This document shows, piece after piece, positions 26,523 to 57,987 of a stretch of DNA of 64,000 nucleotides (positions are counted from its first letter, which is position 1; every line of letters begins with the position of its first letter). A model generated the notes under the pieces. That model worked only from the letters and a program-made list of their open reading frames with translations, was not told the DNA's origin and ran no database searches. The position numbers and the translations under genes were made by a program. The DNA comes from Candidatus Omnitrophota bacterium. Its GTDB lineage: Bacteria; Omnitrophota; Gorgyraeia; Gygaellales; Profunditerraquicolaceae. The DNA is taken from contig JBAZKL010000003.1 of the NCBI GenBank assembly GCA_041650835.1, positions 99,682 to 163,681 of the forward strand, read 5' to 3'.

Positions 26523-26524
26523 CC

Positions 26525-27586: not shown

Positions 27587-27886
27587 TTACAAAGTATTCA
27601 TGATGGTGTTGATCTTTTCAAACATAACACCTACTTCATGCGAGGCATGCTTTGTCGATTCTTTTACCCAAACAACCTTGCCTTCGACAAAATAGGTGCC
27701 GAACTGCGGAGTAACCCTGAACTCTCCCGTCACCTTACTTCCGACAGGAACTGTTTCATTAAGAAAGACCCTCATCCCGCCGCTGCTCAGATCCGCAATA
27801 GGGACTTCCTTTTTTTCATGACCCTTGCCGAATGTTGCCTTATTATTCTCTATATTCCAGCGGCTATATTTTCTTCTCTCGTCCAA
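27587..27886 (-). CDS. PilZ-domain protein (c-di-GMP receptor)
   Basis: 99 aa. It has an RxxxR motif (RRKYSRW) and a DxSxGG motif (DLSSGGMRV). Confidence 0.8.
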   Translation of the reverse strand: MDERRKYSRWNIENNKATFGKGHEKKEVPIADLSSGGMRVFLNETVPVGSKVTGEFRVTPQFGTYFVEGKVVWVKESTKHASHEVGVMFEKINTIMNTL

Positions 27887-35160: not shown

Positions 35161-36834
35161 TTATACTGTTTTGTCCTGTAATTTAAACTTTTGTACCGTT
35201 TCCTTTAATTCTACGGCCAAACGGGCAACTTCCTGGCTCGAAGCGGCAACTTCCTGCATGGAAGCAGTTTGCTCCTGGGTATTCGCCGAAACATGCTCTA
35301 TCGCGGTTGCCGACTCTTTAGCTATCTGCGTAACTTCGCTTATTACCTTTACCATGCCCTCTATCTCAGCAACACTATCCTGGCCGGTAGAAGCAATATG
35401 GTTAACAAATACGGTAGCCTCCTGGGCAACCTTATTAATCTCCCCCAAAACCTCAGTTATTTTAGCTACCTGGGCCCGGCCGCCCTGGACTTCTTTTGAA
35501 CTGGCTTCAATGGAATTAACCGCGCGATTAGTTTCTTCCTGGATCAACGTGATCAGCCCCCCGATCTTACGCACAGCTTCAGCTGCGCCCTCAGCGAGCT
35601 TTCTAACTTCTTCGGCAACTACCGCGAAGCCTCTCCCCGCGTCTCCAGCCCTGGCGGCCTCAATTGCCGCGTTAAGCGCCAAAAGATTGGTCTGATCCGC
35701 GATAGAAGTGATAGTCTCGGTGATCTCTCCTATCTGCTGCGAAGTCTTGCCAAGCCCCTGAACAACAGAAGTTGTCTCTAAGACCGTATTTGTCAAATGG
35801 CTTATTCTTTCTACAGTTTCCAAAGCTGCGATACGCGCGCTTTCCGCGCAAGCCGTTGTCTGGCCAACCGCCCTATGCGCCATTTGAGCATCTTTAACCA
35901 CATCCTTAAGATTATCAGCTGCCCGGCCCATAGCTTCAAATACCCCATTGATCTGCTTTGCCTGAGTATTGGCGCCTTTACTTACCTGCGCCACGGAATA
36001 AGCGACTTCTTGCGTTGAAGAACTCATTTCCTGAATAGTATGCGTCGTCTCTTGTAAAGAAAACGCCACCTTATCGGCAATTCCGCTGATCTGAGCGATC
36101 ATGTCGCGTAACCCTTGAGACATCTTAGAGAATGCTTTCGACAACTCCAGCATCTCATCATCGCCCTTCATCTCGATCGCCCCCAAAGAAAGATCACCGG
36201 AAGAGATTTTCTTAGCAATAAGCATAAATGCCGACAAGGGCCGTAAAACATGCTTTTCCAGGAAAAGGCTGTACAGTACACCCCCGCCGACCAAGACTAA
36301 GACGCATAAAAAAACCGCCAGCATGATAATGCCGTTAACATCCGCGATGATATACTTATCCGTAATTCCCACCCTCAAGATACCAACGGCCTGAGTGCCT
36401 GACATAACAGGAATAACCGCCTCGAAAACACTCCCATAGCCGGGCCGCTTAAGGATAAACTGGCTTTTTGCCTTAAGACAGCGCTTCTCATCCGCTGTTT
36501 TGTTCAGGTATTTTCCCTCCAGGTCCCGGCGCGTGGAAACCAACACCAACCCTTCTTTCTCAAGAAGGATAATATACTCAATATCGAAATTCCTGCCCCG
36601 GGCATCTTCGAATAAACGGGAAATCCGGTCTATCGCGCCGGATTCTAAAAGGTCCCTGCATGAAAGCGCAAGGCTTGACGCCATGTTCTCAGCCGCTAAC
36701 TGCTGCATCGAAAAAAGCTGGGCGCGCATTCTATAGCCGACAACCGACAGCACTATGGCAGTTACCAGGGAAACAACCCCGAGAAAATAAACCATCATTT
36801 TCAATTTCATCCGGGAGCTATTCGCGAGATCCAT
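35161..36834 (-). CDS. Methyl-accepting chemotaxis protein
   Basis: 557 aa with two TMs flanking a ~150 aa periplasmic domain, a HAMP domain, and the signalling hairpin [38 protein letters not shown]. Confidence 0.9.
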
Positions 36835-36979
36835 ATACCCTCTGAAGCTGTTGAGAATTTAACGAACGGTTACTGATCTTGTATTGAATAAACAGCAAAA
36901 ACTGCTTTCGCTTGATAAAAAAGGCTGGAACAAATCAAAAACCCTGAAGACATCCTTCGATAAGGCAGGCAGGCGAAGC

Positions 36980-37504
36980 TTAACTTTCTTTTTCTTTACC
37001 TTCTTTCAGCACAGACGCGGAGGAGCCCTTCACCCGCTCAACATGCTGCACTTCTTCGGGGCTCAAGACGCTCTTAAGGTCTAAAAGGATCAAAAGCCTG
37101 TCTTTTAATTTCCCGACCCCCCAGATATAATGTTCAGGGATCTCCGTCATAACCAGCGACGGGACGTCTTCAACATATTCTGAAGATAACCGCAACACTT
37201 CTGAAACCGAATCCACGATCATGCCCACGGTGTTATCGCCGAATTCCACGATAACGATACGGGTGCGCTCCCCGCGTTCTTTAGCGGTAATACCCAATCT
37301 TTTCGCCAAATCAATAACAGCGACTACCTGGCCGCGCAAATTAACGACACCTTCGATAAAAACAGGAGCCTTGGGTAAATAGGTGATTTGCAGCAACCGG
37401 ACAATTTCCCTTACCTGGCTTATATCAACACCAAACTCTTCTTCCCCGATCGTGAAAACAACCAACTGGTATTCTTTTAATTTACTTTCAGCCATGAGGA
37501 TCAC
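36980..37504 (-). CDS. cheW: Chemotaxis coupling protein CheW
   Basis: 174 aa with a CheW-like SH3-type domain (EYQLVVFTIGEEEFGVDISQVREIV...). Confidence 0.9.
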   Translation of the reverse strand: MILMAESKLKEYQLVVFTIGEEEFGVDISQVREIVRLLQITYLPKAPVFIEGVVNLRGQVVAVIDLAKRLGITAKERGERTRIVIVEFGDNTVGMIVDSVSEVLRLSSEYVEDVPSLVMTEIPEHYIWGVGKLKDRLLILLDLKSVLSPEEVQHVERVKGSSASVLKEGKEKES

Positions 37505-37531
37505 CCCCTGTTATGAACTGCCCGGAAATAA

Positions 37532-38143
37532 CTATTCTTTTAATCCTAATAAATCAAATATTTTCAACAATGAGTCCGTTGACGGGAACAACAAAAACAA
37601 GCCTTCGAGATTCAACCCCTTAACTTTCATATCGGTCTTGATCACAATCGCCTCTTCCGAATACTGCGCGATCTGTATAAAAATAAAATCCAGGATAGCA
37701 CCCACCATATCCATCGCTAACGAAGGGATAGAAGTAAGGATGTTTTGGTGGACCATGTCGGCCAAAGCGGATAAATACGACCCGCCTAAGATATTCGCTG
37801 ATTCTTTTAAAGAGGACTGGAACAAGGAATCGTTAAAATCGATCTGGTCTTTAGGCAAACCCAGAAGGCTGCTGGATAAAAGCCGCGCGTCATTCGGAGA
37901 AAACAATAAAAATATCCTCCCGTAAATATCCCCCTTGATCTCCATATCTAAAACAAAAAATAACCGGTCCATTTCCCCTAATAATTTATAAATCTGCTCC
38001 AAGGGAACCATGGTAACTTCAGGGACGTTGATCTCGACTTTCTCAGCGACCAGATCGGCCAAGGCAGTAGCGGCATTGGCAGCGCCGATAGTGCCGATCT
38101 CTCTTATCAGATCCATCTGAGCTAAAGAAAACTTTTTATCCAT
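37532..38143 (-). CDS. cheC: CheC-family phosphatase
   Basis: 203 aa. Repeat 1 is DLIREIGTIGAANAATALADL, with N replaced by T. Repeat 2 is SLKESANILGGSYLSALADM, with E..N retained. Confidence 0.75.
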   Translation of the reverse strand: MDKKFSLAQMDLIREIGTIGAANAATALADLVAEKVEINVPEVTMVPLEQIYKLLGEMDRLFFVLDMEIKGDIYGRIFLLFSPNDARLLSSSLLGLPKDQIDFNDSLFQSSLKESANILGGSYLSALADMVHQNILTSIPSLAMDMVGAILDFIFIQIAQYSEEAIVIKTDMKVKGLNLEGLFLLFPSTDSLLKIFDLLGLKE

Positions 38144-38164
38144 GACCGATTCCTTTTTTATTAA

Positions 38165-39208
38165 CTATATTTTTTCTAATATCGCTTTCGCTATATCAAA
38201 AACAGGCAGCACCGCGTCAGACAAGCCGGCATCATAAATAACTTTCGGCATACCCCAGACAACCGATGTCTTCTCATCCTGGATAATTACCGTACCGCCT
38301 TTTTCTTTTATTTTCCTTACCCCTTCCAAAGCGTCCTTACCCATCCCCGTCAAGACTACCACGACAACATTCTTACAGTCATAATTCTCAACGACCGACA
38401 ACAGTGTCACATCCGCTGCAGGGCGGACAAAATTCACGAGAGGCCCCTGGTTCAATTTTATCCTTAAAACCCCTTTTTCATTTTCAATCCCCATATGGGA
38501 GCCGGCAGGCGCGACAAAAGCTTTTCCAGCGACAAGAATATCGCCCTCCTCAGCCTCTTTAGCCTTGATCTTTGACTGCCAGGAGATCCTTTCAGCAAAG
38601 CTTAAGGTAAATCCCAGCGGCATATGCTGGATTATCAAAAAAGACGCGGGGACATTCGCGGGGATATCCCGCATAACATCTAACACCGCTTTCGGGCCGC
38701 CCGTTGAAGCCGCTATCAAAACCAGCTTCTTAAAGGCGATCGGTTTTACCTCCGCGCCAAAAGTATCTGCTTTAAATTGTTCTTTTGAAGAGACCTTCGT
38801 CACCTCAACCTTAGCCGCTAATTTTATTTTCGCGATAATCTCATCTTTAAGCTTATTGATATCTAAAGAAATCTCGCCTGATGGCTTGGCAACAAAATCA
38901 ACCGCCCCTAACTCCAGCGCCCGCAATGTCGCGGTCGCGCCCGCGCGGGTATACGCGGAGATCATGACAACGCGCGATGGCTGTTTTTTCATTACTTCTT
39001 CAAGGACGCTTAACCCATCCAGCAAAGGCAAGTTTATATCCAAAGTGATCACGTCGGGCTTGAACTCGTATATTTTTTCCAAAGCCTCTTTACCGTCTTT
39101 CGCTTTACCGATTATTTCCAAAGCCGGATCGCTCTCAATAATATCGGAAATGATCTGGCGCATCAAGAATGAATCGTCAACGATTAAAACACGTATTTTA
39201 TTTTCCAT
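38165..39208 (-). CDS. cheB: Chemotaxis methylesterase CheB (REC plus methylesterase)
   Basis: 347 aa. It has an N-terminal receiver domain (VLIVDDS...DVITLDINLP) and a C-terminal catalytic domain (ASTGGPKAV, IIQHMPLGFT). Confidence 0.9.
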   Translation of the reverse strand: MENKIRVLIVDDSFLMRQIISDIIESDPALEIIGKAKDGKEALEKIYEFKPDVITLDINLPLLDGLSVLEEVMKKQPSRVVMISAYTRAGATATLRALELGAVDFVAKPSGEISLDINKLKDEIIAKIKLAAKVEVTKVSSKEQFKADTFGAEVKPIAFKKLVLIAASTGGPKAVLDVMRDIPANVPASFLIIQHMPLGFTLSFAERISWQSKIKAKEAEEGDILVAGKAFVAPAGSHMGIENEKGVLRIKLNQGPLVNFVRPAADVTLLSVVENYDCKNVVVVVLTGMGKDALEGVRKIKEKGGTVIIQDEKTSVVWGMPKVIYDAGLSDAVLPVFDIAKAILEKI

Positions 39209-39696
39209 TATACTTCTTTCTCTCCCCAGGAAACCGTTTTAACCAGGACCTTACCGTCATCCAAATTAAGCTCGATCGTTCTCCCGAAACTACCGCCCGT
39301 TTCCTGGACATCGACCTTCATATCTAAAGCCTTAAGCGTGATCATGGCAACTTCAAGGTTCTTTTGGCCGACATTAAGGATACTATCGGAAGCAATAAAA
39401 CCGAACATATGCGCTCCGCCGAAAAGCTTGGTAACAATTGAGCTGCGCGACACGCCCCGCTTCTCCATTTCTTCGACCATCTTCGTAAGAGCGGAGTTGA
39501 CAAACCGGCTGGGATTTGATTTAATCTTGGCTTTCTCGATATCAGGGAGCATCGGATGCGCCATCACGCCGATCTTCTTTGACGGGTCATACATAGTGAT
39601 ACCTAAACAGGAGCCAAGCCCCCGGGTGATCAATCGTGCAGGGGCTTCGGATATTTCCATTTGAGCCATATTTACTTCAATGGTTTTTGCTTCCAT
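39208..39696 (-). CDS. cheD: Chemoreceptor glutamine deamidase CheD
   Basis: 162 aa with GLGSCLGITMYD and GVMAHPMLP motifs. Confidence 0.85.
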   Translation of the reverse strand: MEAKTIEVNMAQMEISEAPARLITRGLGSCLGITMYDPSKKIGVMAHPMLPDIEKAKIKSNPSRFVNSALTKMVEEMEKRGVSRSSIVTKLFGGAHMFGFIASDSILNVGQKNLEVAMITLKALDMKVDVQETGGSFGRTIELNLDDGKVLVKTVSWGEKEV

Positions 39697-39709
39697 GATA
39701 ATCGTACCC

Positions 39710-40081
39710 CTATCCTCCTATAACTCTTTTTAATGCCTCCACGACGCGTGAAGGTTGAAAAGGTTTTGTTACAAAATCCTTGGCACCTGCCTGAATAGCT
39801 TCAACAACCAAGGAATGCTGCCCCATAGCCGAAACCATGATGATCTTCGCCTGCGAATCCACTTTCATGATTTCCTTGACCGCGCCAATACCGTCGATCT
39901 CTTCAACCTTCGGCATGACAATATCCATCGTGACTAAGTCGGGTTTAAGCTGCTGATATTTATCGATCGCATCTTTGCCGTTCTCAGCCTCACCGCAAAT
40001 CTCTATACCTTCCTTCTTGAGAATATCGGAAAGCATCCGACGCATGAACAACGCATCATCAACAATTAATACCCGTGCCAT
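39710..40081 (-). CDS. cheY: Chemotaxis response regulator CheY
   Basis: 123 aa single-domain receiver (LIVDDALFMRRML, DLVTMDIVMP, SAMGQ, KDFVTKPF). Confidence 0.9.
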   Translation of the reverse strand: MARVLIVDDALFMRRMLSDILKKEGIEICGEAENGKDAIDKYQQLKPDLVTMDIVMPKVEEIDGIGAVKEIMKVDSQAKIIMVSAMGQHSLVVEAIQAGAKDFVTKPFQPSRVVEALKRVIGG

Positions 40082-40136
40082 CTGCTACCTCCTTTGTATT
40101 TTTGAATCAGGCCTTCTTTAAAGTCCCGGAATACAT

Positions 40137-40982
40137 TTATCCGATTTTCTGGTAAATCTTATTCTTATTGCCCGGTTCTGCCGCCGTGAATAAATCTTTT
40201 TGCCAAACATTTTCCACTTTGCCGACGGTCAAATACCCTTTCGCGTTAAGCGAGCTATAGAACTTCCGGGTAAATTCCTCCTGCTGTTGGCGGGTGAGGT
40301 AAATCATAATGTTCCGGCAGCAAACCAGGTCCATGAACTGCAAATACGGTTCGGTTATCAAATTGTGCTGCTGGAACTTCACCATCCCCTTTATTTCGTC
40401 TTTCAATTTGTAAACGTTATTATAAACTGGTATGAAATATTTATCAAGCGTTTTCTTATCTAACTTTTTTAACTCGATAGCCTTATATTCGGCTTTCGCC
40501 GCTTTATCCAATGCTTCCCGGTCCATATCGGTAGCGATGATCCTGAGGGAATAATCCCCCCGGCTGGCCAATTCTTCTTTCAGCATGATCGCCAGGGAAT
40601 ACGGCTCTTCTCCGGTCGCGCACGCCGCGGACCAAACCCGCAGCACCCGGTTATTCATTTCGGCCTTACGCTTGAGGATGTCCGGGATCACAACGCTGCG
40701 CATTGCCTGGAAAACTTCTATATCGCGGAAGAACTCGGTAACATTAACGCCAAGGGTATTCAATAAAAACCCGAATTCTTCGGGGGTCTTTCGGATATAC
40801 CCCTCATAATCCACATACCGCTCCAGCTTCAGATTCGACATACGCACGCGCAAGCGCCGCAAAACAAAACTCTTACGATACGAGCTTAAGTCGATACCCT
40901 TTTGTTGCCGGATATAAGCAAGGAGCGACAAAAATCCCGGATCTTTTAAATATTCCGCTTCCTGGGGATCCTGCATATTCAT
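40137..40982 (-). CDS. cheR: Chemotaxis methyltransferase CheR
   Basis: 281 aa with a CheR N-terminal helical domain and a SAM-binding domain (RVWSAACATGEEPYSLAIML). Confidence 0.9.
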   Translation of the reverse strand: MNMQDPQEAEYLKDPGFLSLLAYIRQQKGIDLSSYRKSFVLRRLRVRMSNLKLERYVDYEGYIRKTPEEFGFLLNTLGVNVTEFFRDIEVFQAMRSVVIPDILKRKAEMNNRVLRVWSAACATGEEPYSLAIMLKEELASRGDYSLRIIATDMDREALDKAAKAEYKAIELKKLDKKTLDKYFIPVYNNVYKLKDEIKGMVKFQQHNLITEPYLQFMDLVCCRNIMIYLTRQQQEEFTRKFYSSLNAKGYLTVGKVENVWQKDLFTAAEPGNKNKIYQKIG

Positions 40983-40989
40983 TCTATAA

Positions 40990-41253
40990 TTAATGACGCG
41001 GGTTCTTGCTGATATGCAAGATCGCTTTTGTTAATTCTTTAACGACGTCTGCGCGGAACTGGGTGCCTTGTTCATTGAGCTTGGTAAACACCCGCCCCTT
41101 ATCGGTAATGACATAATTCGGCGGTAGCCTGTTCAAAGCCCAAACCATAATATCAAACTTGCATTTCTGGCATTTACATATATCCTCGATCTCGGAGAAT
41201 AATTCATTCAACTCATCTTCAACAATATCTTCCATGTAATTATGTATTTGCAT
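40990..41253 (-). CDS. ComFB-family protein (late competence ComFB-like; candidate cyclic-dinucleotide receptor)
   Basis: 87 aa. It shows the ComFB hallmark cysteine cluster and downstream motif ICKCQKCKFDIMVWALNRLPPNYV. It is embedded inside the che operon with an 8 bp gap to cheR. Confidence 0.75.
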   Translation of the reverse strand: MQIHNYMEDIVEDELNELFSEIEDICKCQKCKFDIMVWALNRLPPNYVITDKGRVFTKLNEQGTQFRADVVKELTKAILHISKNPRH

Positions 41254-41412
41254 GAATGCCTCCTTGTAGCTTCATTATTCGGCTGCTGCAACACCGATAA
41301 CCTTACACCCCCCGCGCTGATCGCACCTTGACTTATCGGATAGCCAAGTGCGCGCTTTCTGCGCAGGAATTGCGCGGGGTATGCTGCTTTCTGCAGCACC
41401 GATAACCGAATA

Positions 41413-43560
41413 TTAAACTCTATCCTCAAACAATATCTGAACCCTAGCCCCTTCAGTTAAAGGCGTCACAAATCCCGCAGGGCTATCATTAACCAGGATC
41501 CTGATCTTTTTCCCAAAGCCCTTGTAAGGATCAAAGTCAATATACTTGAATATATCGGAAAGCAGGATCTGTCTTTTCTTTACGTAATAGACCTTTATAT
41601 CCGCGCCATCGATCAAGAATTCATCAAGTTTGACCTGCTGGCCGTTCATAAAGGCCTGCACCGCCTCAAAGGCCATATCAATATCTTTACCGTCTACGGT
41701 CACATGTATCGTATCATGCATTTTAGGCAAGTCAATAATATCTTTGATCCGGTAATAGGTCGGGGTATCCGCGACAAATTCCAGGAAATCATTTTCCTTC
41801 AATTCAGCATCCAAGCCGGTCAATTGCCCATTAAGCCTCAGCGTAAAATTCTGCTGGGTCAATATCCGCGGGGCCTCATTGACATTAACCAGGATCTGGC
41901 GTTCAGACAAATTATCCATGCCGATACCCTGAAACTCCAAAAGATCGCGAACCCGGGGGCCAATCGTTTCAATAACAGCGCGGTCGGGCACCATTGCTTC
42001 CGCAGCGCGCCGGATACCGTTCACCAAAACAGGGGCGTTGAATTTCACCTGCTGACGGTTAAATATTACGGAAACCGCCTGAGGGGCGACAACTTCCTGC
42101 AAACGAACACACCCGTCAACGCCGTCAACGGCTTCAACAAAGGTGAGGGAATCCCCATCTTCTACTTGATCAGCGAGAGAATTAACCGGGTTACCGTTTA
42201 AACTTACCGTTGCTGAGCCGCCGAGGCTACCTTTAAAAATCCGCAGCTCCCCATTGACTTCAGCCGTCAAAGACAAACCGGGGCGGGGAAACAGCTTCTT
42301 GTTCACAATCACCCCTGATGCCGTCAATACGGCCATGATATCTTTTTTTTGCTGAAAATCCAGCATCCGTAACGGCCGGCCGTTGACCGTAACATTAATA
42401 AAACGCAATCCTAAAGACTGCATCGTCATGAGCGTAATACCTATGGGAGTTATGGTTTCCGGCCCCTTGAGCTTCCCGGTAAGGTCATGGACACTCTTGA
42501 TCATATGCGGCAGGCGTACGCCAACCTTGTGAGGGGCGATCCCAAAGCCTTTCGCAAGCTCCTGGACCAGGTCAAACGTCTGGCTTGCCCCTCCGACAAC
42601 AACAACAGCTTCGGGAGGCCCTTCATTCAACGCAAGGCCGGCCTGAGCGATCGATGCCGCTAATTTGTTAACGGCAGGTAACAGGTTTTTCTTAAGGGTG
42701 AAAATATCGATACGCTGAGGCTTTCCCCAAATATCTTCATAGGCGACCATGACATCGTGATCCAGGGAGCGCTTGATCCGTTCCGCGGAAGAGAAATCCA
42801 CCAGCAAAACCTTGGAAATATATTCCGTGATCTCATCACCCGCTTCGGGGACCATGCCGTAGGCGAAAACAAACCCGCCCTTGGTCAAGGCCAGATCAGA
42901 CGTTCCGGCACCGATATCAATAAGGACGATATTAAGGCTGCGCATCTCCGGGGGGACAATAGCATTGAGAGCGGCAATAGGCTCAAGGGTCATATTAATC
43001 GCCTCAAGCCCGGCCTTTTCCAACACGGCGAACATGCTGTCTAAAACTACGCGCGGCAAGAATGTCGCAATAACCTCGACACAGATCATTTTCCCGCGAT
43101 GGCCCCGGAGGCTGGAGATCCGGTTATTATCCAGCTCGTAATAAACAGGACTGTAGCCGACGCAATAAAATTCAGAGAGCTTGTTCCCCGAATTAGAAAC
43201 GATCGCCTCGATAGCTTCCAACTCCAGGTCACGCACGATCGCCGGAGTGATCTCCTGCTCCGTGCCAAGTTCTTTGGAAACCTTACTTTTATGCGCGGCC
43301 AGATTTCTCCCGGCGACCGCTACCCCGACTTGCCTGAGCTTCCTGCCCAGGCGCGATTCAAGGCTTTCTTTTATCTTAACGACGGTCTTGACGACCTCTT
43401 CAATGCTATGGATCTGCCCGTCGAACATCGGGCGCGCCGCATGTTCCCGGACCTCCACATCGACGATCTCGACATGCTCATCCTGCTGACGGGCAACAAT
43501 CCCCATCACCTTGCGTGTCCCGATATCCAACGCAAATATTTCCCGCGCCATAGGAATCAT
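41413..43560 (-). CDS. Actin-like ATPase (FtsA/PilM/EutJ superfamily) N-terminal half fused to a C-terminal array of 4-5 small ThiS/MoaD-like (beta-grasp) repeats
   Basis: 715 aa. The N-terminal ~370 aa carry ASKHA motifs: FALDIGTRKV (phosphate-1), LIDIGAGTSDLAL (phosphate-2) and VVVGGASQ (adenosine). The C-terminus repeats a V/L-x-V/L-N-G...L..GD.I.F/V pattern (VTVNGRPL; SLNGNPVNSLADQVEDGDSLTFV; RLNGQLTGLDAELKENDFLEFV; MNGQQVKLDEFLIDGADIKVYYV; LVNDSPAGFVTPLTEGARVQILF). Its start overlaps the upstream cheC by 4 bp (ATGA). Confidence 0.6.
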   Translation of the reverse strand: MIPMAREIFALDIGTRKVMGIVARQQDEHVEIVDVEVREHAARPMFDGQIHSIEEVVKTVVKIKESLESRLGRKLRQVGVAVAGRNLAAHKSKVSKELGTEQEITPAIVRDLELEAIEAIVSNSGNKLSEFYCVGYSPVYYELDNNRISSLRGHRGKMICVEVIATFLPRVVLDSMFAVLEKAGLEAINMTLEPIAALNAIVPPEMRSLNIVLIDIGAGTSDLALTKGGFVFAYGMVPEAGDEITEYISKVLLVDFSSAERIKRSLDHDVMVAYEDIWGKPQRIDIFTLKKNLLPAVNKLAASIAQAGLALNEGPPEAVVVVGGASQTFDLVQELAKGFGIAPHKVGVRLPHMIKSVHDLTGKLKGPETITPIGITLMTMQSLGLRFINVTVNGRPLRMLDFQQKKDIMAVLTASGVIVNKKLFPRPGLSLTAEVNGELRIFKGSLGGSATVSLNGNPVNSLADQVEDGDSLTFVEAVDGVDGCVRLQEVVAPQAVSVIFNRQQVKFNAPVLVNGIRRAAEAMVPDRAVIETIGPRVRDLLEFQGIGMDNLSERQILVNVNEAPRILTQQNFTLRLNGQLTGLDAELKENDFLEFVADTPTYYRIKDIIDLPKMHDTIHVTVDGKDIDMAFEAVQAFMNGQQVKLDEFLIDGADIKVYYVKKRQILLSDIFKYIDFDPYKGFGKKIRILVNDSPAGFVTPLTEGARVQILFEDRV

Positions 43561-44177
43561 GTTTGATTTATACTAAGGATCTTATGCACGCTTTCCTGCG
43601 CCAATAAGAAAAGGACGAAGACATTCAACTCGACATCTTCGATAAAAAGACGGTTCTCGATCGGCAGGATATACCCGGCATCGCCCTTATGCAGCCCGGC
43701 GATCAAGTGACGGACCAAACGAGCCATCGTATCCATGTGGATCTGATTTACCGACGGGACTAATTTATACAGCTTCAAGAACTCAGTCACCGCGTTCAAG
43801 TAGGAACAACAGAGGATATTAGAACTTTCGGAGAGGGCGGAAGCATCCGCAAGATTAAAAAGCTGGCTGGTCCCGGCTTTCCGGCGCGCGAGAATATCGA
43901 TCATTGAAAGCGCGCTCTTGAGCGAGAACAAAACCAGCATATCACCGGTTAAAGACCCCAAAATATTCACGCTGACCGCCATGCCTATTTCATGGGGGTC
44001 GGATAAGAATTCGGCGCTTAAAACCTCAGGGAATGAAAGGATCTTAACGCTCGGGACATTAATAAGCACTTTCTTGTTAAAAAGCTGGCCTAAAGCCGTG
44101 GCGGCATTACCCGCGCCGATATTGCCGATTTCTTTTAATACGTCTAATTGCTGAGATGTTAAATTCAATCCGCTCAT
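43557..44177 (-). CDS. cheC: CheC-family phosphatase
   Basis: 206 aa with a canonical first repeat (LDVLKEIGNIGAGNAATALGQL) and a second repeat (SALSESSNILCCSYLNAV). Confidence 0.85.
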   Translation of the reverse strand: MSGLNLTSQQLDVLKEIGNIGAGNAATALGQLFNKKVLINVPSVKILSFPEVLSAEFLSDPHEIGMAVSVNILGSLTGDMLVLFSLKSALSMIDILARRKAGTSQLFNLADASALSESSNILCCSYLNAVTEFLKLYKLVPSVNQIHMDTMARLVRHLIAGLHKGDAGYILPIENRLFIEDVELNVFVLFLLAQESVHKILSINQT

Positions 44178-44189
44178 TTTTACCTTTGC

Positions 44190-46184
44190 CTAACGCAGGC
44201 TCATCGTATCTAAAATCAACGCGACTTTCCCGTCACCCAGTATCGTCGCTCCCGCAATTCCCTTTGTCCGCTTGATCAACGCCCCTAAAGGCTTGACGAC
44301 AATATCTTGTTCGCCTAATACCTGGTTGACGACCAAACCGGCTGCTTTTGTGCCGTATTCAATAATGATCACGGACAAACTTGTATCTTCGGCGGCATCA
44401 AGCTGTAACGCCAGCTTCTTAATATCGAGTTCTTTCTGCAGCCGGATGATCGGGATGATCTCATCCCTGACCCGCGCCACTTCAAAATTCTGTATGATCC
44501 GGAGCTCTTCTTCCTGGATCTTAATGATCTCCCGGACGCTCATTAAGGGGATCGCAAAGACCTCGTTACCCACCTTGACCAGCATCGCCTTGATGATCGC
44601 CAACGTCAACGGCAGCGTCAGGATAAAACGGCTCCCCTTACCGGGCTCGGTTTCAAATTCAAGCCTGCCCCCCAGGGATTCGATCTTGGATTTAACGACA
44701 TCCAGCCCTACGCCCCTGCCTGAAATATCGGTTACTTTCTTGGCGGTCGAAAAGCCGGGCAGCGTGATCAGGTCAAGGATCTTTTTTTCATCAAGGCCTA
44801 CGGCTTCTGCTTCCGTTATCAGTCCTTTCGTAAGAGCAACGTTCTTGACTGTCGTGAAATTAACGCCCCTGCCGTCATCGGCTATCTCAATGAAGATCTG
44901 GCCTTTCTGCCTGCTGACCTGAATAAGCAATTTGGCGTTCGGCTTCTTGCCGGCAGCGCTGCGCTCCTCGGGGTTTTCGATACCATGATCAATAGCATTG
45001 CGTATCAAATGCACCAGCGGGTCGCTCATTTCATCAAGGACCACGCGGTCCAATTCGATCTCACTCCCGCTGATCTCCAGCTCCACCTGTTTATTCTGCT
45101 TCCGGGCCAGGTCCCTGACCATGCGCGGAAAAGTATCCAGGATATAAGCGACCGGTAATAACCGCGTCTGCATGATCTCATCTTGCAGCGACGAAATAAG
45201 CCGGTCGAGCATCGAACTGACATCTTCTAAAGGGTCTATCTTATACTGCTGAGAGATCTGCATCAGGCGGATCTTAGCGATCGCCAGCTCCCCCATCAAA
45301 TTCATGATCTTATCCAAACGTTCCACCGGCAGGCGCATACTCTGGATCTTCTTGACATAATGCTGGGCAGGAGCAGCGACGGTAGCGGATGAAGCAGCCC
45401 CCCCTGCTACGGCAGGACGGACATTGATTTCAAGGGAATTGATCTCCACCTTCTCGATCTCCGAGATAGTCAACAAGACCCGGTTGATCGTTTCTTGAGT
45501 CTCTTTTGTTTCCAGGATCAAGGTAAAGGTAAAATCAAATTTACCCTCTTTCAGGCAATCAAGCGCAGGCAAGGACTTAATGATCTCTCCGCTGCGTTTG
45601 ATATTATTAACCACCAGGTACGCGCGGGCCTCACGCATGACACAATCCTTGGAAATGATCACTTTGACCTTATAGATATTATGCTTGAGGTCCTTTGCCA
45701 GGTTTATTTTTTTAAGCTCTTCTTCGCTGAACTCAATATCCCCGTTCCCTTCTAAAACCTTCTTCGCCGGTCCGGTTGAACCCGAGGCAATTTTCTCCAC
45801 ATCGGGCTCCTGGGTAAAAATATCCTTCAAATCCTGCAAAAAAGGATTAATGTCGACCTTGGATTCCTGTTTGGCTTTTATTTCCTCGACTAATTTTTCC
45901 AGGAGGTCAACGGTAGCAAAAAGCTTATCGATGATCTCTGAGGTGACCTTCTTGCGCTGGCTGCGCAACTCATCCAGAAGGTTCTCCATATGGTGGGATA
46001 ACTGGGTAAGTTTATCAAACCCCATCGTTGCCGACATGCCTTTTAAGGTATGCATACAACGGAAGATCTCATTCAACGAACTTAAGTCGGCGGGATTTTC
46101 TTCAAGTTTAACCAGGCAATTACTGATAACGCTGAGGTATTCTTCGGACTCGGTAAGAAATAATTCTCTATAGCTATCCTGCAT
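44190..46184 (-). CDS. cheA: Chemotaxis histidine kinase CheA
   Basis: 664 aa. It has an HPt domain (FRCMHTLKGMSATMGF), a dimerisation domain, a HATPase_c domain (DDGRGV, GRGVGLDVV) and a C-terminal CheW-like domain. Confidence 0.9.
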   Translation of the reverse strand: MQDSYRELFLTESEEYLSVISNCLVKLEENPADLSSLNEIFRCMHTLKGMSATMGFDKLTQLSHHMENLLDELRSQRKKVTSEIIDKLFATVDLLEKLVEEIKAKQESKVDINPFLQDLKDIFTQEPDVEKIASGSTGPAKKVLEGNGDIEFSEEELKKINLAKDLKHNIYKVKVIISKDCVMREARAYLVVNNIKRSGEIIKSLPALDCLKEGKFDFTFTLILETKETQETINRVLLTISEIEKVEINSLEINVRPAVAGGAASSATVAAPAQHYVKKIQSMRLPVERLDKIMNLMGELAIAKIRLMQISQQYKIDPLEDVSSMLDRLISSLQDEIMQTRLLPVAYILDTFPRMVRDLARKQNKQVELEISGSEIELDRVVLDEMSDPLVHLIRNAIDHGIENPEERSAAGKKPNAKLLIQVSRQKGQIFIEIADDGRGVNFTTVKNVALTKGLITEAEAVGLDEKKILDLITLPGFSTAKKVTDISGRGVGLDVVKSKIESLGGRLEFETEPGKGSRFILTLPLTLAIIKAMLVKVGNEVFAIPLMSVREIIKIQEEELRIIQNFEVARVRDEIIPIIRLQKELDIKKLALQLDAAEDTSLSVIIIEYGTKAAGLVVNQVLGEQDIVVKPLGALIKRTKGIAGATILGDGKVALILDTMSLR

Positions 46185-46212
46185 AAAAGGCCTTCAAGGA
46201 TTGTGTATTGTA

Positions 46213-46821
46213 TTATTCGCCGATGCTTTTAATAATAAGCTCCAGCCCCACCGAGTTGGGGATCAGGAAAAAATGCCCCCGGATGGAAGCTTTGAGTTCC
46301 GTAAATTCAGATTCGATCAAAAGGGCAAACTCAGACGTACAACTTAATTCGATCAAAACATAATCAAGCATTGCCCCCGCCATATCAATGATCAACTCCG
46401 GCACAGTCGGGACCAACCCCAAGCCGACAAAGCTCCCTAACGCCCCCAAATAAGCGTTAGCGAGTATCACCCCTACTTCTTTTAACGCAGAACGCTCGAC
46501 ATCGCCGATAACGCTTCCGCCGGAAACCGGCTTGCCGGTCATCAGCCCCGCGAGGGCAAGCGCGTCTTTCTGGGAAAAGATAAAAATAATGGTGCTCGGT
46601 AAATCGCCGAGGACCCGTAAAACCAGGCCCGCGACAAGCTGATCATCGCCGCCGACGGCATTCGGGACCTCTTCAATAGGAAGAAACAATATCCGGGGGA
46701 CAACGATACTAATATTGGTATCGAGCAACTGCGATAGCGCGGTCGCGGCATTACCGGCACAAATATTGCCGATCTCCTTCATCGCGTCTTTTTGCTTATC
46801 GGTAAAAGCCATATCAGCCAT
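46213..46821 (-). CDS. cheC: CheC-family phosphatase
   Basis: 202 aa with a canonical first repeat (DAMKEIGNICAGNAATALSQLL). The second repeat has E but N replaced by V (SALKEVGV). Confidence 0.85.
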   Translation of the reverse strand: MADMAFTDKQKDAMKEIGNICAGNAATALSQLLDTNISIVVPRILFLPIEEVPNAVGGDDQLVAGLVLRVLGDLPSTIIFIFSQKDALALAGLMTGKPVSGGSVIGDVERSALKEVGVILANAYLGALGSFVGLGLVPTVPELIIDMAGAMLDYVLIELSCTSEFALLIESEFTELKASIRGHFFLIPNSVGLELIIKSIGE

Positions 46822-46869
46822 TTCGCTTACGCTCCTCCTGCGTTTACGTGCAAATAAATAAACGGTCGG

Positions 46870-47256
46870 TTACAATCTTTTTTCCGCCGGAAGCAAAGCA
46901 TTACGGACCGCCTCCACCAGCCGGATCGCCTGGACCGGCTTCGTCACAAAATCTTTGGCTCCCGCCCGTATCGCCTCCACAACCAACGACTGCTGCCCCA
47001 TAACCGAACAAATCAATATCTTCGCGTTCGGGTCGATTTTGACAATTTCCCTCACAGCGCCGATACCGTCAAGCTCTTCCATCATAGGCATGACAATATC
47101 CATAGTCACCAGATCAGGCTTGAACTCTTGATACTTCACAACCGCATCTTTGGCGTTCGAAGCTTCAACGCAGATCTCGTAACCTTCTGCGGTCAAGATC
47201 TTGGCGATCATTTGGCGCATAAAAACAGCATCATCAACTATCATAATTTTTGCCAT
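46870..47256 (-). CDS. cheY: Chemotaxis response regulator CheY (second copy, first gene of the operon)
   Basis: 128 aa single-domain receiver (IMIVDDAVFMRQMI, DLVTMDIVMP, KDFVTKPV). It is ~60% identical to the CheY at 39710..40081. Confidence 0.9.
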   Translation of the reverse strand: MAKIMIVDDAVFMRQMIAKILTAEGYEICVEASNAKDAVVKYQEFKPDLVTMDIVMPMMEELDGIGAVREIVKIDPNAKILICSVMGQQSLVVEAIRAGAKDFVTKPVQAIRLVEAVRNALLPAEKRL

Positions 47257-47273: not shown

Positions 47274-47301
47274 ATTATAAGCTACTCTGACATTATGTCA
47301 A
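47274..47301 (-). promoter_or_regulatory. Candidate sigma70-like promoter for the che operon
   Basis: On the minus strand: TTGACA (47301-47296), a 16-nt spacer, then TATAAT (47279-47274). The RBS AGAGG and the ATG follow within ~18 nt. The predicted TSS would fall at or inside the SD, so the leader would be very short. Confidence 0.3.
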
Positions 47302-47357: not shown

Positions 47358-48134
47358 TTATTTTTTCTTAAGCGATCTTGTTTTGATAACGTCAGAGATC
47401 ACCCCCCAGCCGCATAAAAAACCGCAGGCTGCATAAAACAGCGTTATCACCAAGCGGTCGGCAACCGCCAAAGCAACAGACTGTTTAAAAGGCACCCCTG
47501 TCTGCATCAACAAGAACGTCATCCCGCTTTCCTTGATACCGAGCCCTGAGGGAAGAGGAGAAAGATATCCCATGGTAAAGGAAATGGCGATAAGCTTAAC
47601 CATTTCCCCCCAGGGGATACGCACGCCGAACACCTTGAATAAAAACCAATAATAACAGACGCCGGAGATAATATTCAAGAGCGCAAGCGGCGCCACGGCA
47701 AGAATATTACGGCTCGTTCCTTTAAAATACCCCGCGGCGTTGCTGATAAAATCACCCAGCCGCTTTCTTTTATTCAGGATAAAAAAGAAGGCCAGCGCAA
47801 AAAAAACGATCAAGAACCAATGGGTGCGCGCCGCAAGCTGCGCGCCGAAATATAACCCGGCGATAATCCACGGCAAGACAGAAAAGAGCTCGAGAGCGGC
47901 GAATGACGCAAGGCTTTTATATAACGGGACAGAGTCATTCTTAAGCGCCGCGCTTGCCAATGCGTAGCCGGAACCCGTCAAAAATATCTTATTCAACGCC
48001 CCCGCAACGATCGTCCCTTGTATCGCTTTTCCCAAAGAAACCTGCCGATTAAGTAAGATCCAAAAAACACATGAGCTTAAAAAAACACTCATTCCTAACG
48101 CCAAGAAAATAAATACCCCATAGACGATCGTCAT
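47358..48134 (-). CDS. Polytopic membrane protein (lysylphosphatidylglycerol-synthase TM-region / UPF0104 flippase-like)
   Basis: ~258 aa with 7-8 TM helices. Start chosen at the second ATG (MTIVYGV...) because it forms a 4-bp ATGA overlap with the upstream methyltransferase stop; the track start is 48146. The family call is weak. Confidence 0.4.
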   Translation of the reverse strand: MTIVYGVFIFLALGMSVFLSSCVFWILLNRQVSLGKAIQGTIVAGALNKIFLTGSGYALASAALKNDSVPLYKSLASFAALELFSVLPWIIAGLYFGAQLAARTHWFLIVFFALAFFFILNKRKRLGDFISNAAGYFKGTSRNILAVAPLALLNIISGVCYYWFLFKVFGVRIPWGEMVKLIAISFTMGYLSPLPSGLGIKESGMTFLLMQTGVPFKQSVALAVADRLVITLFYAACGFLCGWGVISDVIKTRSLKKK

Positions 48135-48793
48135 CGTTTCCGGCACACACCCGTTAATCCTTTACACCAAGGAGTAAACCTGCTCAAGAAGCCGTGGAAT
48201 TTGCGCACAGATGAAAACCGGCGCCACGGCAGGAGCCATCCGAAACGCCCGTATAAACACACTTCCGGGAAACTCTTTTCTAACAGCGCTTTAAACTCGA
48301 AATAATCCAGTTCCGAGAAATGCGTGGGATGCTTTTCTCCGGTCAGGGCGCAATATACCCAAAACAACGGCTTATTCGGCGTCGAGATCACGAATGTTCC
48401 CGAAGGAGACAGCACCCGGGATATCTCCTCAAGAAAACCCCGGTGAAACAACCGATGAGGGAGATGTTCAATGACTTCGATAGCGCAGACTGTCTCAAAA
48501 GAATTATCCTTAAAAGGGAGCTTACGCGCATCCGCGCGGACAAAGCTTATTCCTGCCGCGCCTGCCAACCGGCGAGCCCTGAGGAGCCTGCCGGCGGAAA
48601 TATCCATCGAGATCAACGTGTCGCAGCGGCCGCGGATATCTTTGGCCCACATGCCGTCTCCGCAGCCGATCTCCAGGCACCTTCCCCGTACATGCGTAAG
48701 CACAAAATCAACAAACTCCCGGGAGCCGCTTTGCCGATGCGCCTGCTTTGCCGCGGAAAGCTCTAAAGAATCCAAGTATGTTTTTTCATTCAT
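48131..48793 (-). CDS. Class I SAM-dependent methyltransferase
   Basis: 220 aa with motif I (LEIGCGDGMW) and motif post-I/II (ISMDIS; VCAIEVIEHL). Confidence 0.7.
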   Translation of the reverse strand: MNEKTYLDSLELSAAKQAHRQSGSREFVDFVLTHVRGRCLEIGCGDGMWAKDIRGRCDTLISMDISAGRLLRARRLAGAAGISFVRADARKLPFKDNSFETVCAIEVIEHLPHRLFHRGFLEEISRVLSPSGTFVISTPNKPLFWVYCALTGEKHPTHFSELDYFEFKALLEKSFPEVCLYGRFGWLLPWRRFSSVRKFHGFLSRFTPWCKGLTGVCRKR

Positions 48794-48794
48794 A

Positions 48795-49502
48795 TTATTT
48801 CCGCGCTACCATGCTGTAACCCAGCGTATCTTCTTCATTCTTGTTCAAACATTCCAATAAAACAAACGACGATTGGACAAGAGCGCAGGTAAAAAGCTTT
48901 AAAGCCTCCGCGGCGGCGGATCGCGGCCTGCCGCCGGCATAATAAAGGTAATTACTTAACCGCTGGCCCATCATCTTCCAGAACCCTCCCCGCGCTTTAA
49001 CAGTGACTTGCGTAAAGCCGGCCGTTGCCGCCAGGTAACTTAAGCCGTAACGGGTAAAACGGTAATAATCATGCGGGGCCTCATGAATGCCCCAATCCAT
49101 CGGCGCTGTTAAGATAAGGCAGCCGCCTTTTTTGAGCACCCGGTAAGCTTCCCGGAATAACACCTGGGGGCGGCGGACATGCTCAAGCGCCTGGATAGAC
49201 AAGACCGTATCAAAGCTATTATCCCTGAACGGCAGTTCCTCTGCCGAGCCGTAAATATCCGGCTTGCCGGATGAAGTTGTTACATCGAGCCCGATATAAC
49301 GCGAACAGTAACCGTCAAAAACCGCCTGGTATGGCTTTTCACCGCAGCCTATATCCAACAAAACCCCTTTGGCATCTATGCGGCAGGAGATGAGCGCGTC
49401 AAGTATCGACTGTTTTTCGATCCGCTGCGGATGCAGCCAGGGAAACCTCCCCCTGAGGATATACGCTGAACGTTTTTTCCTGAAAATTTCCCTGGCATTC
49501 AT
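48795..49502 (-). CDS. Class I SAM-dependent methyltransferase
   Basis: It has motif I (LLDIGCGEKPY) and VLKKGGCLIL. The ATG at 49502 overlaps the GT4 stop as ATGA. The track start at 49553 is a TTG and would overlap GT4 by 55 nt. Confidence 0.65.
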   Translation of the reverse strand: MNAREIFRKKRSAYILRGRFPWLHPQRIEKQSILDALISCRIDAKGVLLDIGCGEKPYQAVFDGYCSRYIGLDVTTSSGKPDIYGSAEELPFRDNSFDTVLSIQALEHVRRPQVLFREAYRVLKKGGCLILTAPMDWGIHEAPHDYYRFTRYGLSYLAATAGFTQVTVKARGGFWKMMGQRLSNYLYYAGGRPRSAAAEALKLFTCALVQSSFVLLECLNKNEEDTLGYSMVARK

Positions 49503-50602
49503 TGAGCGCGCGCTTTCAGATAATGAGCGATCCTTGTTATCACCTTCTGCCAATCATACTGACTGCTTAAACGCAGGCCCTGTTCAGAAAGTGTTTTAAG
49601 TTGTGCAGAAGAGCTTAAGGTTGCATGCAACAGGCTGGTTAAATCCCTGACATTATTCTTCTCAAACCGCGGCAGCCCTAAATCCGGACAGCCGGTAGAA
49701 ACAAGCGTCGGCGTAGCAGAAGCCATCGCCTCCAGAGCTGCCAGGGGTAATCCTTCATAGAGAGAAGGTAAAACGAACAGGTCCGCGTGACGATAAACTG
49801 CCGGAAGGCTTTCATAGGGGACCTTGCCCAGGAATTCAACGGCAAACGGCAGCTTCGCGGCTTGAGCGCGTAAACGTTTTTCCTCCCTGCCAACACCGGC
49901 TATCCGCACCGCGATCCCGGTGCTGCCGGGAAGGTTCTTTACCGCGCTCAACAAAATATCGATCCCCTTCCTGGCATCCAGCCTGCCGGCATAGAGTATT
50001 GTTTTTACCGCCTGCCCGAAGCTGCGCGCCGATACGGGTTTAAAAAGCCCCGTATCCACACCGTTAGGAATGATCTCTATTCTTTCTTTCTGCGCCCCCA
50101 TAAACTGAAGCTCCTCCGCCATATCCCGAGAAAGAGCGATGAGCCCGGAAGCTTTCTTTAACAATGTTTTCTCATAAGGGATATACGCCTTATTCAAAAA
50201 AGCGTACAAGGGCCTGCCCATTAATACGCAAGCCTTATACTCTCCATAGCGGCTGCCCTGAAAATGAGCCACGAGCGGCCGGGTTATCCGGCAGACAAAA
50301 GGAGAAGACAGGCTGTATAACAAATCGAATCTTTTTTCTATCTTCGGTATTATGCCGCCGGCATAGTAAGCAAACGACGGCATCCGGGTCAAAAAAGTCT
50401 TACCCAAAAGCGGGACACGGTAGAGCGAAACCAGCCCTCTCGTTTCTTTCCTGACTTTATATATCGTCGGATCACCCGCGATTATCGTCAACTCAATCCC
50501 GTGCTCTGGAAGAAGGCGTTCGATATAACCTGAACAAACTCCCATCCCCCCTTTTGCGTAGGGAGGATGGTCACGGCTTAACATTAAGACCTTCATAGCC
50601 AT
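49499..50602 (-). CDS. Glycosyltransferase family 4 (GT-B, retaining)
   Basis: 367 aa with an N-terminal GGMG motif (PYAKGGMGV) and a C-terminal E-x7-E motif (EGLPLAALEAMASATPTLVS). Confidence 0.8.
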   Translation of the reverse strand: MAMKVLMLSRDHPPYAKGGMGVCSGYIERLLPEHGIELTIIAGDPTIYKVRKETRGLVSLYRVPLLGKTFLTRMPSFAYYAGGIIPKIEKRFDLLYSLSSPFVCRITRPLVAHFQGSRYGEYKACVLMGRPLYAFLNKAYIPYEKTLLKKASGLIALSRDMAEELQFMGAQKERIEIIPNGVDTGLFKPVSARSFGQAVKTILYAGRLDARKGIDILLSAVKNLPGSTGIAVRIAGVGREEKRLRAQAAKLPFAVEFLGKVPYESLPAVYRHADLFVLPSLYEGLPLAALEAMASATPTLVSTGCPDLGLPRFEKNNVRDLTSLLHATLSSSAQLKTLSEQGLRLSSQYDWQKVITRIAHYLKARAQ

Positions 50603-50622
50603 AAATTATTTTCTTAAGTTTA

Positions 50623-50730
50623 AAAGCTAAAGATCAAATAACAAAGGAAACTCAAAGGTTAAAGTTTCAATTCTAAAATTTAACCTTAAAACTTTAATCT
50701 TCCTTTGTTCTTTAAACTTTAGACTTTAAA
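50623..50730. repeat. Copy B of the hairpin-forming intergenic repeat element
   Basis: The arms are AAAGCTAAAGATCAAATAACAAAGGAA (50623-50649) and TTCCTTTGTTCTTTAAACTTTAGACTTTAAA (50700-50730). It lies 17 bp downstream of the epimerase stop and ~20 bp upstream of the GT4 start. Confidence 0.5.
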
Positions 50731-50761
50731 ATTATCTTATTACTCCTGATTCTATTAAACA

Positions 50762-51856: not shown

Positions 51857-51901
51857 AGTATCGTTATTGTCGTTAGTATCGTTATTGTCGTTAGTATCGT
51901 T
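51857..51901. repeat. Tandem repeat of 18 bp x 2.5 copies, immediately 5' of the epimerase start codon
   Basis: AGTATCGTTATTGTCGTT, AGTATCGTTATTGTCGTT, AGTATCGTT. It is followed by degenerate AACGA-rich sequence up to 51945. Confidence 0.7.
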
Positions 51902-51945
51902 TAATATGTTCAACGAAAATAACGAATACAACGGAACTAACGATA

Positions 51946-57901: not shown

Positions 57902-57987
57902 TTCTCACCTCCTCTTAAAAGTTTACCATATTGACCGTTTTATTGTCAAGTATTTTCGTAAATTAATCTATCCTCACCCGACGATTA

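Follow-up and report, generated by a model that had tools for sequence, protein, structure and literature searches.

What does a ComFB-family gene do inside a chemosensory operon, and on which of its neighbors would its product act? This question is raised by a 64,000-nucleotide stretch of DNA from a Candidatus Omnitrophota bacterium (assembly GCA_041650835.1, contig JBAZKL010000003.1, positions 99,682 to 163,681; hereafter the window, numbered from its first nucleotide), in which an open reading frame (ORF) of 87 codons, running from ATG to stop on the minus strand at 40990-41253, is surrounded by che genes. We refer to this gene as comFB; it encodes a stand-alone ComFB-family protein (PF10719) and candidate receptor for cyclic di-GMP (c-di-GMP) or cyclic di-AMP (c-di-AMP). 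An initial annotation, from which the strand was absent, had already suspected such a role. The best-supported reading of our comparative analysis is that a second-messenger input may be hard-wired into the chemosensory pathway at this locus, with the chemoreceptor glutamate methyltransferase CheR, encoded directly downstream of comFB, as its probable point of entry.

Assignment of the window protein to the ComFB family

That the window protein is a true ComFB is virtually certain, because sequence, fold and residue conservation agree. The ComFB signature that the initial annotation had recognized in the 87-amino-acid (aa) product was borne out, as the string it had quoted, CKCQKCKFDIMVWALNRLPPNYV, corresponds to residues 26-48, and the Pfam family PF10719 (ComFB) matches residues 4-85 over the whole domain (profile positions 1-83 of 83; E = 6.6e-26), scoring 90.6 bits where the gathering cut-off lies at 25. 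The annotation had named the lack of a PF10719 match as a reason to abandon its claim; given this strong, full-length match, that outcome did not arise. The NCBIfam model NF052654, which is the equivalog for the late-competence ComFB of Bacillus, reached 41.1 bits, short of its cut-off of 120, and the neighbors of the window gene are che genes, not comFA or comFC. Judged by its sequence, the protein is a member of the ComFB family and not a Bacillus ortholog, and 'late competence protein' is a misnomer for it and for its subfamily. The exact same protein is present on 12 public contigs with an identical operon, and its source-named close homologs are all labeled Candidatus Omnitrophota, except for one labeled Deltaproteobacteria.

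In phmmer comparisons the window protein matched the Bacillus protein BsComFB (PDB 4WAI; E = 1.5e-5) and, with lower significance, the complex of Synechocystis CdgR with c-di-GMP (8HJA; E = 0.005). An AlphaFold2 model, built on 19 orthologs, consisted of three helices (predicted local distance difference test (pLDDT) 77.3, predicted template modeling (TM) score (pTM) 0.69), with low confidence in the loop comprising residues 47-60. When this model was compared with the PDB using Foldseek, the top five matches were all chains of 4WAI or 8HJA (probability 0.95-1.00, TM-score 0.61-0.68), with 4WAI reaching a probability of 1.00 (TM-score 0.61-0.66) and 8HJA 0.95-0.99, while the next match had a probability of only 0.14. 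The protein is thus predicted by the model to adopt the helical ComFB fold seen in 4WAI and 8HJA.

Conservation of the ligand, dimer and zinc residues

The initial annotation had described the ComFB family as c-di-GMP and c-di-AMP receptors, and this is indeed published: all ComFB proteins assayed bind c-di-GMP, with dissociation constants (Kd) ranging from 0.17 to 284 µM, and some also bind c-di-AMP (PMC12448109). BsComFB, which binds c-di-GMP at 0.17 µM, contacts the ligand through D33, N40, R/K41, the hydrophobic positions 36/37/47 and the aromatic residue Y55; its dimer residues are N4, E7, D33, N40 and Y46, and its Zn ligands are C25, C27, C30 and C88, in a site described as structural (PMC12448109). 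According to the alignment to 4WAI and 8HJA, the numbering of the window protein is that of BsComFB + 1. Conservation was counted in 120 clusters of stand-alone orthologs and, for the fused proteins described below, in 96 clusters of ComFB-CheR fusions.

All ligand-contact positions have their equivalents in the window protein, namely D34, N41, R42, V37, W38, V48 and F56, and they are invariant or conservatively substituted across the stand-alone orthologs. Indeed, D34, N41 and Y47 occur in 120/120 clusters and R42 in 116/120, and position 56 is aromatic (Y/F/W) in every one of the 120. The dimer residues N5, E8, D34, N41 and Y47 are likewise present and invariant or nearly so in the orthologs, with D34 being a dimer and a ligand residue at once. 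The Cys triad is similarly strict (C26 and C28 in 120/120, C31 in 119/120). The fourth Cys, which is not conserved outside Bacillus (PMC12448109), is missing from the window protein; it ends instead on His87, a C-terminal residue shared by 118/120 stand-alone clusters, and it is plausible that this His substitutes for the missing Cys as a Zn ligand. Since the ligand residues are conserved and every ComFB assayed bound c-di-GMP, the window protein is likely to bind a cyclic dinucleotide.

The comFB-cheR pair is conserved across genomes

The initial annotation had proposed examining whether comFB co-occurs with che operons in relatives. We therefore surveyed one genome per GTDB species for ComFB relatives, of which 223 were found and the best 80 loci examined. 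In 27/27 Omnitrophota-type loci, with ComFB proteins 55-100% identical to that of the window, ComFB lay directly upstream of CheR within a che operon, and the gene order of the window cluster was conserved in more than 30 loci (L001-L029 and L166-L169). The pair was retained even where the actin-like gene, which is the upstream neighbor of comFB in the window, was missing (loci L015, L028, L031 and L064). A reverse survey anchored on CheR, covering eight loci on long contigs with CheR homologs at 39-48% identity, revealed ComFB upstream of CheR in 6/8 of them. All four homologs at 45-48% identity showed the order CheA - CheC - actin-like - ComFB - CheR, and the two Omnitrophota CheRs at 39-41% identity (L171 and L172) belonged to an isolated ComFB-CheR pair located between dprA and cytochrome-c biogenesis genes.

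The pair was also present in three further lineages or bins. One locus (L042) has the order glutathione peroxidase - ComFB - CheR - integrase, placing the pair away from other che genes; another (L059) reads PAS kinase - ComFB - CheR - carbonic anhydrase - MCP - CheW - CheY - CheD, where MCP stands for methyl-accepting chemotaxis protein; and the third, from an unclassified bacterium (L045, 9998-15339), reads ComFB - ComFB::CheR - CheY - CheD - CheC. In this third locus a gene for a PilB-type ATPase, which has an MshEN (c-di-GMP-binding) domain, lies about 150 bp beyond the final che gene. As a side observation, this brings two types of candidate c-di-GMP receptor together in a single cluster that is linked to type IV pili.

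As a background control, we inspected generic CheR loci at 30-40% identity on metagenome contigs: among the matches listed, 78/80 had no ComFB, and the remaining two were ComFB-CheR fusions encoded by one ORF. Across 25 loci, the median identity to the window proteins was 68% for ComFB, 61% for CheA and for CheB, and 46% for CheR. The expectation that comFB is kept in the che operons of relatives was thus confirmed from both directions, and the statement that it is 'hard-wired' into a chemosensory operon holds by synteny, albeit in a sharper form: the conserved partner is CheR, rather than the che operon in general or the actin-like gene.

ComFB and CheR are repeatedly fused

The second ComFB copy of locus L045 is a true fusion, in which ComFB (residues 5-86) is followed by CheR_N (101-151) and CheR (165-351). 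With this protein as the query, 96 of the best 120 protein clusters (formed at 90% identity) were ComFB-CheR fusions of 358-396 aa, mostly labeled Omnitrophota. The order was always the same, with ComFB being N-terminal to, or encoded upstream of, CheR. In the whole library we found 1,452 ComFB representatives at E <= 1e-3; the 150 nearest representatives at 50% identity were all ComFB proteins, including one fused to CheR and one fused to Hpt, and about 17 of these 150 were tandem double ComFBs of 178-210 aa (e.g. P0363, P0365 and P0369), that is, covalent 'dimers'. The Hpt-ComFB fusion is, in its own right, a further tie to two-component and chemotaxis signaling. The existence of a ComFB-CheR fusion in Omnitrophota has been mentioned before, in one sentence with one example (UniProt A0A1G1PT98) and no neighborhood analysis (PMC12448109).

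In three loci, comFB and cheR share the same frame and are separated by a single stop codon within the context ...NPQH*... (L012 2242-2244, L028 7132-7134 and L031 10256-10258). We rejected these as fusions, as tblastn had aligned across the stop and direct translation gave one in-frame stop. One substitution or stop-codon read-through could nevertheless yield a fused protein at these loci, so that split and fused forms could be easily interconvertible.

The fused sequences fall into at least two types, carrying the motif ALNRLPPKY...Y (the L045 type) or, in the larger group, ILSRVPAKY...H. Each Cys of the triad is present in 96/96 fused clusters, His87 in 95/96 and Y47 in 93/96. The stand-alone form encoded in the window has a complete canonical ligand site, unlike most fused forms. 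If this difference reflects function, a full site in stand-alone proteins and its partial loss in fused ones would suggest that binding to CheR is under the control of the nucleotide, a control that becomes dispensable upon fusion.

A proposed model for cyclic-dinucleotide control of CheR

Based on the family, the fold, the residue conservation, the operon position, the adjacency to cheR and the repeated fusion seen here, we propose that the window ComFB could be a stand-alone, probably dimeric and Zn-stabilized cyclic-dinucleotide receptor that would act as a regulatory subunit of CheR. Upon binding c-di-GMP (or possibly c-di-AMP), ComFB would alter the methylation of the operon's chemoreceptors by CheR, and receptor adaptation and kinase bias would then follow the level of the second messenger. 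ComFB most likely binds CheR, judging from the Rosetta-stone and conserved-neighbor arguments and from the fact that CheR is common to all contexts, and we are confident, short of certainty, that CheR is its functional partner. Given that ComFB proteins are cyclic-dinucleotide receptors, nucleotide control of chemoreceptor methylation is the simplest model, and we infer that the contact between ComFB and CheR depends on the nucleotide. As to the sign of the effect, analogy allows no more than the guess that methylation would be inhibited. Taken as a whole, the model of a nucleotide-binding ComFB that regulates CheR has our preference by a modest degree.

Several observations weigh against this model. 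TdComFB binds c-di-GMP only at 284 µM (PMC12448109), so conserved residues are no guarantee of a physiological affinity. The fused forms mostly carry S41 (71/96) and have mostly lost the aromatic residue at position 56 (Y in 11/96); as the main fused clade lacks these features, association with CheR does not depend on a canonical ligand site. Moreover, since S41 is common among them and the N40A variant of BsComFB has an about 30-fold lower affinity (PMC12448109), many fused forms may bind the nucleotide weakly or differently. An AlphaFold2 monomer model of a natural fusion (pLDDT 86.7, pTM 0.62), which cannot represent the expected ComFB dimer, had confident domains, but their relative placement was uncertain; with its disordered linker and no defined ComFB-CheR interface predicted, it speaks neither for nor against such an interface. 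The che clusters of L170, which is embedded among pilus genes, and of L173 (Ca. Solincola) have no ComFB. Conversely, about 50 of the 80 ComFB loci examined, mostly from Bacillota and Actinomycetota, have no che neighbor, from which it follows that CheR is not a universal partner of ComFB and that the coupling is a property of one subfamily. Lastly, no catalytically intact GGDEF, EAL, HD-GYP or DAC gene was found, be it within the window or across 586 kb of Omnitrophota loci. The GG[DE]EF motif is absent from these 586 kb; the loci are redundant and che-centered, so that this says little about the genome.

Alternative explanations for the gene pair

ComFB might also serve CheR independently of any nucleotide, as a structural module, i.e., a Zn-stabilized dimerization or targeting domain that makes CheR bivalent or tethers it to the receptor array. 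What the split and fused forms have in common would suit such a role, as they share the Cys triad with His87, N5, E8 and Y47 and not the full ligand site, with S41 prevailing and the aromatic residue at position 56 missing in the fused forms; moreover, in solution ComFB proteins form dimers or tetramers (PMC12448109), and tandem double ComFBs make up roughly 17 of the best 150 relatives. The invariance or near-invariance of the ligand residues in the 120 stand-alone clusters is, however, hard to explain without a ligand, all assayed ComFBs bind c-di-GMP, and the roles of dimerization and ligand binding are not cleanly separable, as D34 serves both. We consider a purely structural function unlikely. 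Less likely still is a receptor that acts elsewhere than on CheR, whether on the adjacent actin-like protein, on the type IV pilus machinery or on a transcription factor, in which case the che operon would provide co-expression only. Cyanobacterial ComFB/CdgR works on pilus biogenesis and via transcription factors; the window contains a pilus cluster at 57.5-64 kb, the MshEN ATPase of the PilB type follows the che genes of L045, and the actin-like gene is the upstream neighbor in most loci. Yet the actin-like gene is missing from L015, L028, L031, L064, L171, L172 and L042 while the adjacency to CheR is constant, which led us to reject the actin-like protein as the ComFB partner. Fusions to CheR occur in 96 clusters but none to an actin-like protein among the 150 nearest relatives, and the che cluster of L170 has actin-like and pilus genes, but no ComFB.

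With C26, C28, C31 and H87 being the most strictly conserved residues in split and fused forms, and with anaerobe-type redox machinery (an Rnf complex) encoded in the window, one could also envision ComFB as a redox or metal sensor for CheR, whose Cys3-His site would bind Zn reversibly or become oxidized. We judge this very improbable, as the Zn site of BsComFB is described as structural, redox sensing has no precedent in the ComFB family and the invariant nucleotide-contact residues of the stand-alone forms would be left unexplained. Finally, an incidental insertion or decaying passenger without any chemosensing role might be suspected from the strain-specific element just upstream of comFB and from the unrelated competence operon in which the founding ComFB resides. 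This idea, to which we assign next to no credence, is refuted by the comparative data, namely the position kept in 27/27 and 6/8 loci, the median identity of 68%, which exceeds that of CheA, CheB and CheR, and the repeated fusion to CheR. Nucleotide-dependent regulation of CheR by ComFB hence remains our preferred explanation.

Relation to known receptors

The window protein shares with BsComFB the Pfam family, the fold, the Cys triad and the ligand and dimer residues, but it is only about 25% identical, has no comFA or comFC neighbors, carries His87 in place of Cys88 and has CheR as its genomic partner. BsComFB inhibits flagellar motility, in the words of a preprint just 'by interfering with flagellar activity'; the discussion of the PNAS article leaves room for an influence on chemotaxis (PMC12448109). 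With the Synechocystis protein Slr1970 (ComFB/CdgR, 8HJA, a c-di-GMP complex) it has the fold and the ligand-contact motif ALNRLPP.Y in common. The cyanobacterial protein, a c-di-GMP and c-di-AMP receptor controlling pilus-dependent behavior, differs by its greater length of about 150-180 aa, the lack of a Cys triad in the aligned region, its being encoded with hfq, and its action via transcription factors or pilus biogenesis instead of a che operon. Similar in composition are the ComFB-CheR fusions of Omnitrophota such as A0A1G1PT98, which have the same components in the same order and come from the same phylum, whereas the window has two genes 7 nt apart and a full canonical ligand site.

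In its proposed logic, that of a small stand-alone c-di-GMP receptor acting on a chemoreceptor methyltransferase, the window ComFB may be compared to MapZ (PA4608), a PilZ adaptor that in its c-di-GMP-bound state inhibits CheR1 in Pseudomonas aeruginosa (PMC6370697) and whose interface with CheR1 has been described (10.1101/2020.02.11.943704). The resemblance concerns the proposed function only: MapZ comprises a PilZ beta-barrel and C-terminal helices, while ComFB is helical with an unrelated fold, and the window protein has a ComFB fold and no PilZ match. PilZ-containing chemoreceptors such as Azorhizobium Cbp1 (PMC6454048) also feed c-di-GMP into a chemosensory pathway, but at the receptor via PilZ and not at CheR via ComFB. 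A similar arrangement exists in the window, where an MCP gene is followed after 25 nt by one for a stand-alone PilZ protein. Neighborhoods previously shown for ComFB include competence, flagellar, pilus, hfq and GGDEF contexts (PMC12448109), and a full-text literature search for ComFB together with CheR returned nothing beyond the one-sentence mention of the fusion. Cyclic-dinucleotide binding by ComFB and the MapZ-CheR1 logic are thus known, and the gene pair and its operon context are not described in PMC12448109.

Organization and expression signals of the che operon

Pfam scans delineated a cluster of 13 co-directional genes on the minus strand (35161-47256). It begins with cheY (46870-47256), cheC (46213-46821), cheA (44190-46184), a second cheC (43557-44177) and the gene for the 715-aa FtsA/actin-like protein (41413-43560), which precedes comFB. 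Directly downstream follows cheR (40137-40982), whose product matches PF01739 (CheR SAM domain) with 187.6 bits and PF03705 (CheR_N) with 40.5 bits; comFB is thus embedded between cheR and the actin-like gene, exactly as the initial annotation had placed it. The cluster continues with another cheY (39710-40081), cheD (39208-39696), cheB (38165-39208), cheC/cheX (37532-38143), cheW (36980-37504) and mcp (35161-36834).

The probable operon promoter precedes the first cheY (47274-47301, minus strand) and matches the sigma-70 consensus TTGACA-16 nt-TATAAT perfectly (12/12). In the interval from the actin-like gene to cheR, a scan of the minus strand for promoters and terminators detected none. The location on one strand, the lack of an internal promoter or terminator and the synteny conserved in relatives all speak for comFB being a member of the che operon, and we infer that it is co-transcribed with cheR. 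Reading the sequence upstream of comFB, we identified a Shine-Dalgarno motif, AAGGAGG (41259-41265, minus strand), 5 nt before the ATG. Downstream, the stop codon TAA of comFB is separated from the ATG of cheR by the 7-nt spacer TTATAGA (40983-40989, minus strand), and the comFB-cheR spacing in 35 related loci is mostly -1 to 25 nt. Translation of the two genes is probably coupled.

A strain-specific insert upstream of comFB

A gap of 159 bp, predicted to fold into a long RNA hairpin (-66.3 kcal/mol, z = -3.7), separates the actin-like gene from comFB. RNA folding and repeat analysis attributed this to a structured insert (41286-41407, minus strand), which is bounded by 17-nt direct repeats, CTGCA[A/G]CACCGATAACC, whose two copies (41286-41302 and 41391-41407) lie 105 nt from each other; its core contains a GC-rich palindrome (41350-41375). 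The insert is confined to the same-strain contigs L001 and L003; in L002 the gap measures about 114 nt, as opposed to about 40 nt in L004, L005 and L007, and the relatives L002 and L006 share nothing of it but the ~37 nt that immediately precede the comFB start codon. The insert RNA matched no Rfam family, and no second copy of the insert was found elsewhere in the window or among relatives. A riboswitch or other conserved structured RNA was rejected on account of the missing Rfam match, the absence from close relatives and the direct repeats. The ~105-nt insert is strain-specific; its origin could lie in a small mobile element or in a duplication at this site. As it is not conserved, it is not required for ComFB function.

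Candidate cyclic-dinucleotide proteins and other genes of the window

The window further encodes a 99-aa PilZ protein (27587-27886, minus strand; PF07238, 48.4 bits) with intact RxxxR and DxSxxG motifs, located 25 nt downstream of the gene for a 786-aa MCP (27912-30272, minus strand). Judging from these motifs, c-di-GMP sensing probably exists in the organism, and PilZ beside an MCP may represent a second entry of c-di-GMP into chemosensing. Two paralogous REC-GGDEF-like proteins are encoded on the plus strand, one with the degenerate motif GGDDF (26525-27487, part of the region 25914-27487), whose gene is preceded by a CheC-like gene, and one with the degenerate motif GSNDF (54466-55422). Both are devoid of an RxxD I-site and match Pfam only partially (profile positions ~3-120 of 161); they are perhaps pseudo-cyclase response regulators connected with the che system. 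The initial annotation had cited the PilZ protein and the two degenerate GGDEF proteins as nearby support for a second-messenger input. These proteins do exist, but 'nearby' is generous, with the PilZ and REC-GGDEF genes flanking comFB at a distance of about 13 kb to each side, and the support they lend is weak, the GGDEF proteins being evidence of neither synthesis nor sensing.

Upstream of the che operon, at a distance of about 10 kb, is a type IV pilus cluster (57524-63933, minus strand) that encodes pilin-like N_methyl proteins, PilO, a PilM-PilN fusion and PilC. Since this cluster is present and no flagellar genes were found within the window, the pilus may be the motor of the che system. 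In its N-terminal half, the actin-like protein resembles the actin fold of FtsA/PilM (7Q6F, E = 3e-13; PF14450), and its C-terminal region matches ThiS/TGS (beta-grasp) weakly. Its gene, also seen in L007-L027 and L166-L170, is a conserved member of these che operons (20/25 loci) and occurs as well in the pilus-embedded cluster of L170 that has no ComFB; a full-text literature search found no paper pairing 'chemotaxis operon' with 'FtsA-like'.

Directly upstream of the che operon lies an envelope/glycan block (47358-54386, minus strand) comprising genes for a GT2 glycosyltransferase, a 510-aa protein without a Pfam match, a UDP-GlcNAc 2-epimerase, a GT4 glycosyltransferase, two methyltransferases and an LPG-synthase-TM protein. 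Synteny of this block extends to L001 and L002. Elsewhere in the window, a 483-aa major facilitator superfamily ORF with a GTG start (2637-4088, plus strand) overlaps a tRNA gene (2727-2799, plus strand), so that its true start is located further downstream.

Implications for chemosensory signaling

ComFB is the third widespread family of c-di-GMP receptors, established between 2023 and 2025, and in B. subtilis and Shewanella it acts as an inhibitor of motility. The comFB-cheR pair, which travels as a two-gene module and is repeatedly fused, names a concrete target, the adaptation enzyme CheR. If this proposal is true, c-di-GMP control of chemoreceptor methylation would have arisen convergently, via two unrelated receptor folds. 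More tentatively, and with more doubt than confidence, one may see in ComFB-CheR a second, independently evolved form of cyclic-dinucleotide control of methylation, and in CheR the first direct motility target of ComFB. The gene pair also offers an entry point into the signaling of Omnitrophota, an uncultured phylum for which functional data are all but lacking. Should ComFB proteins elsewhere, for example in B. subtilis, also act on CheR, the pair would reveal the missing output of the family.

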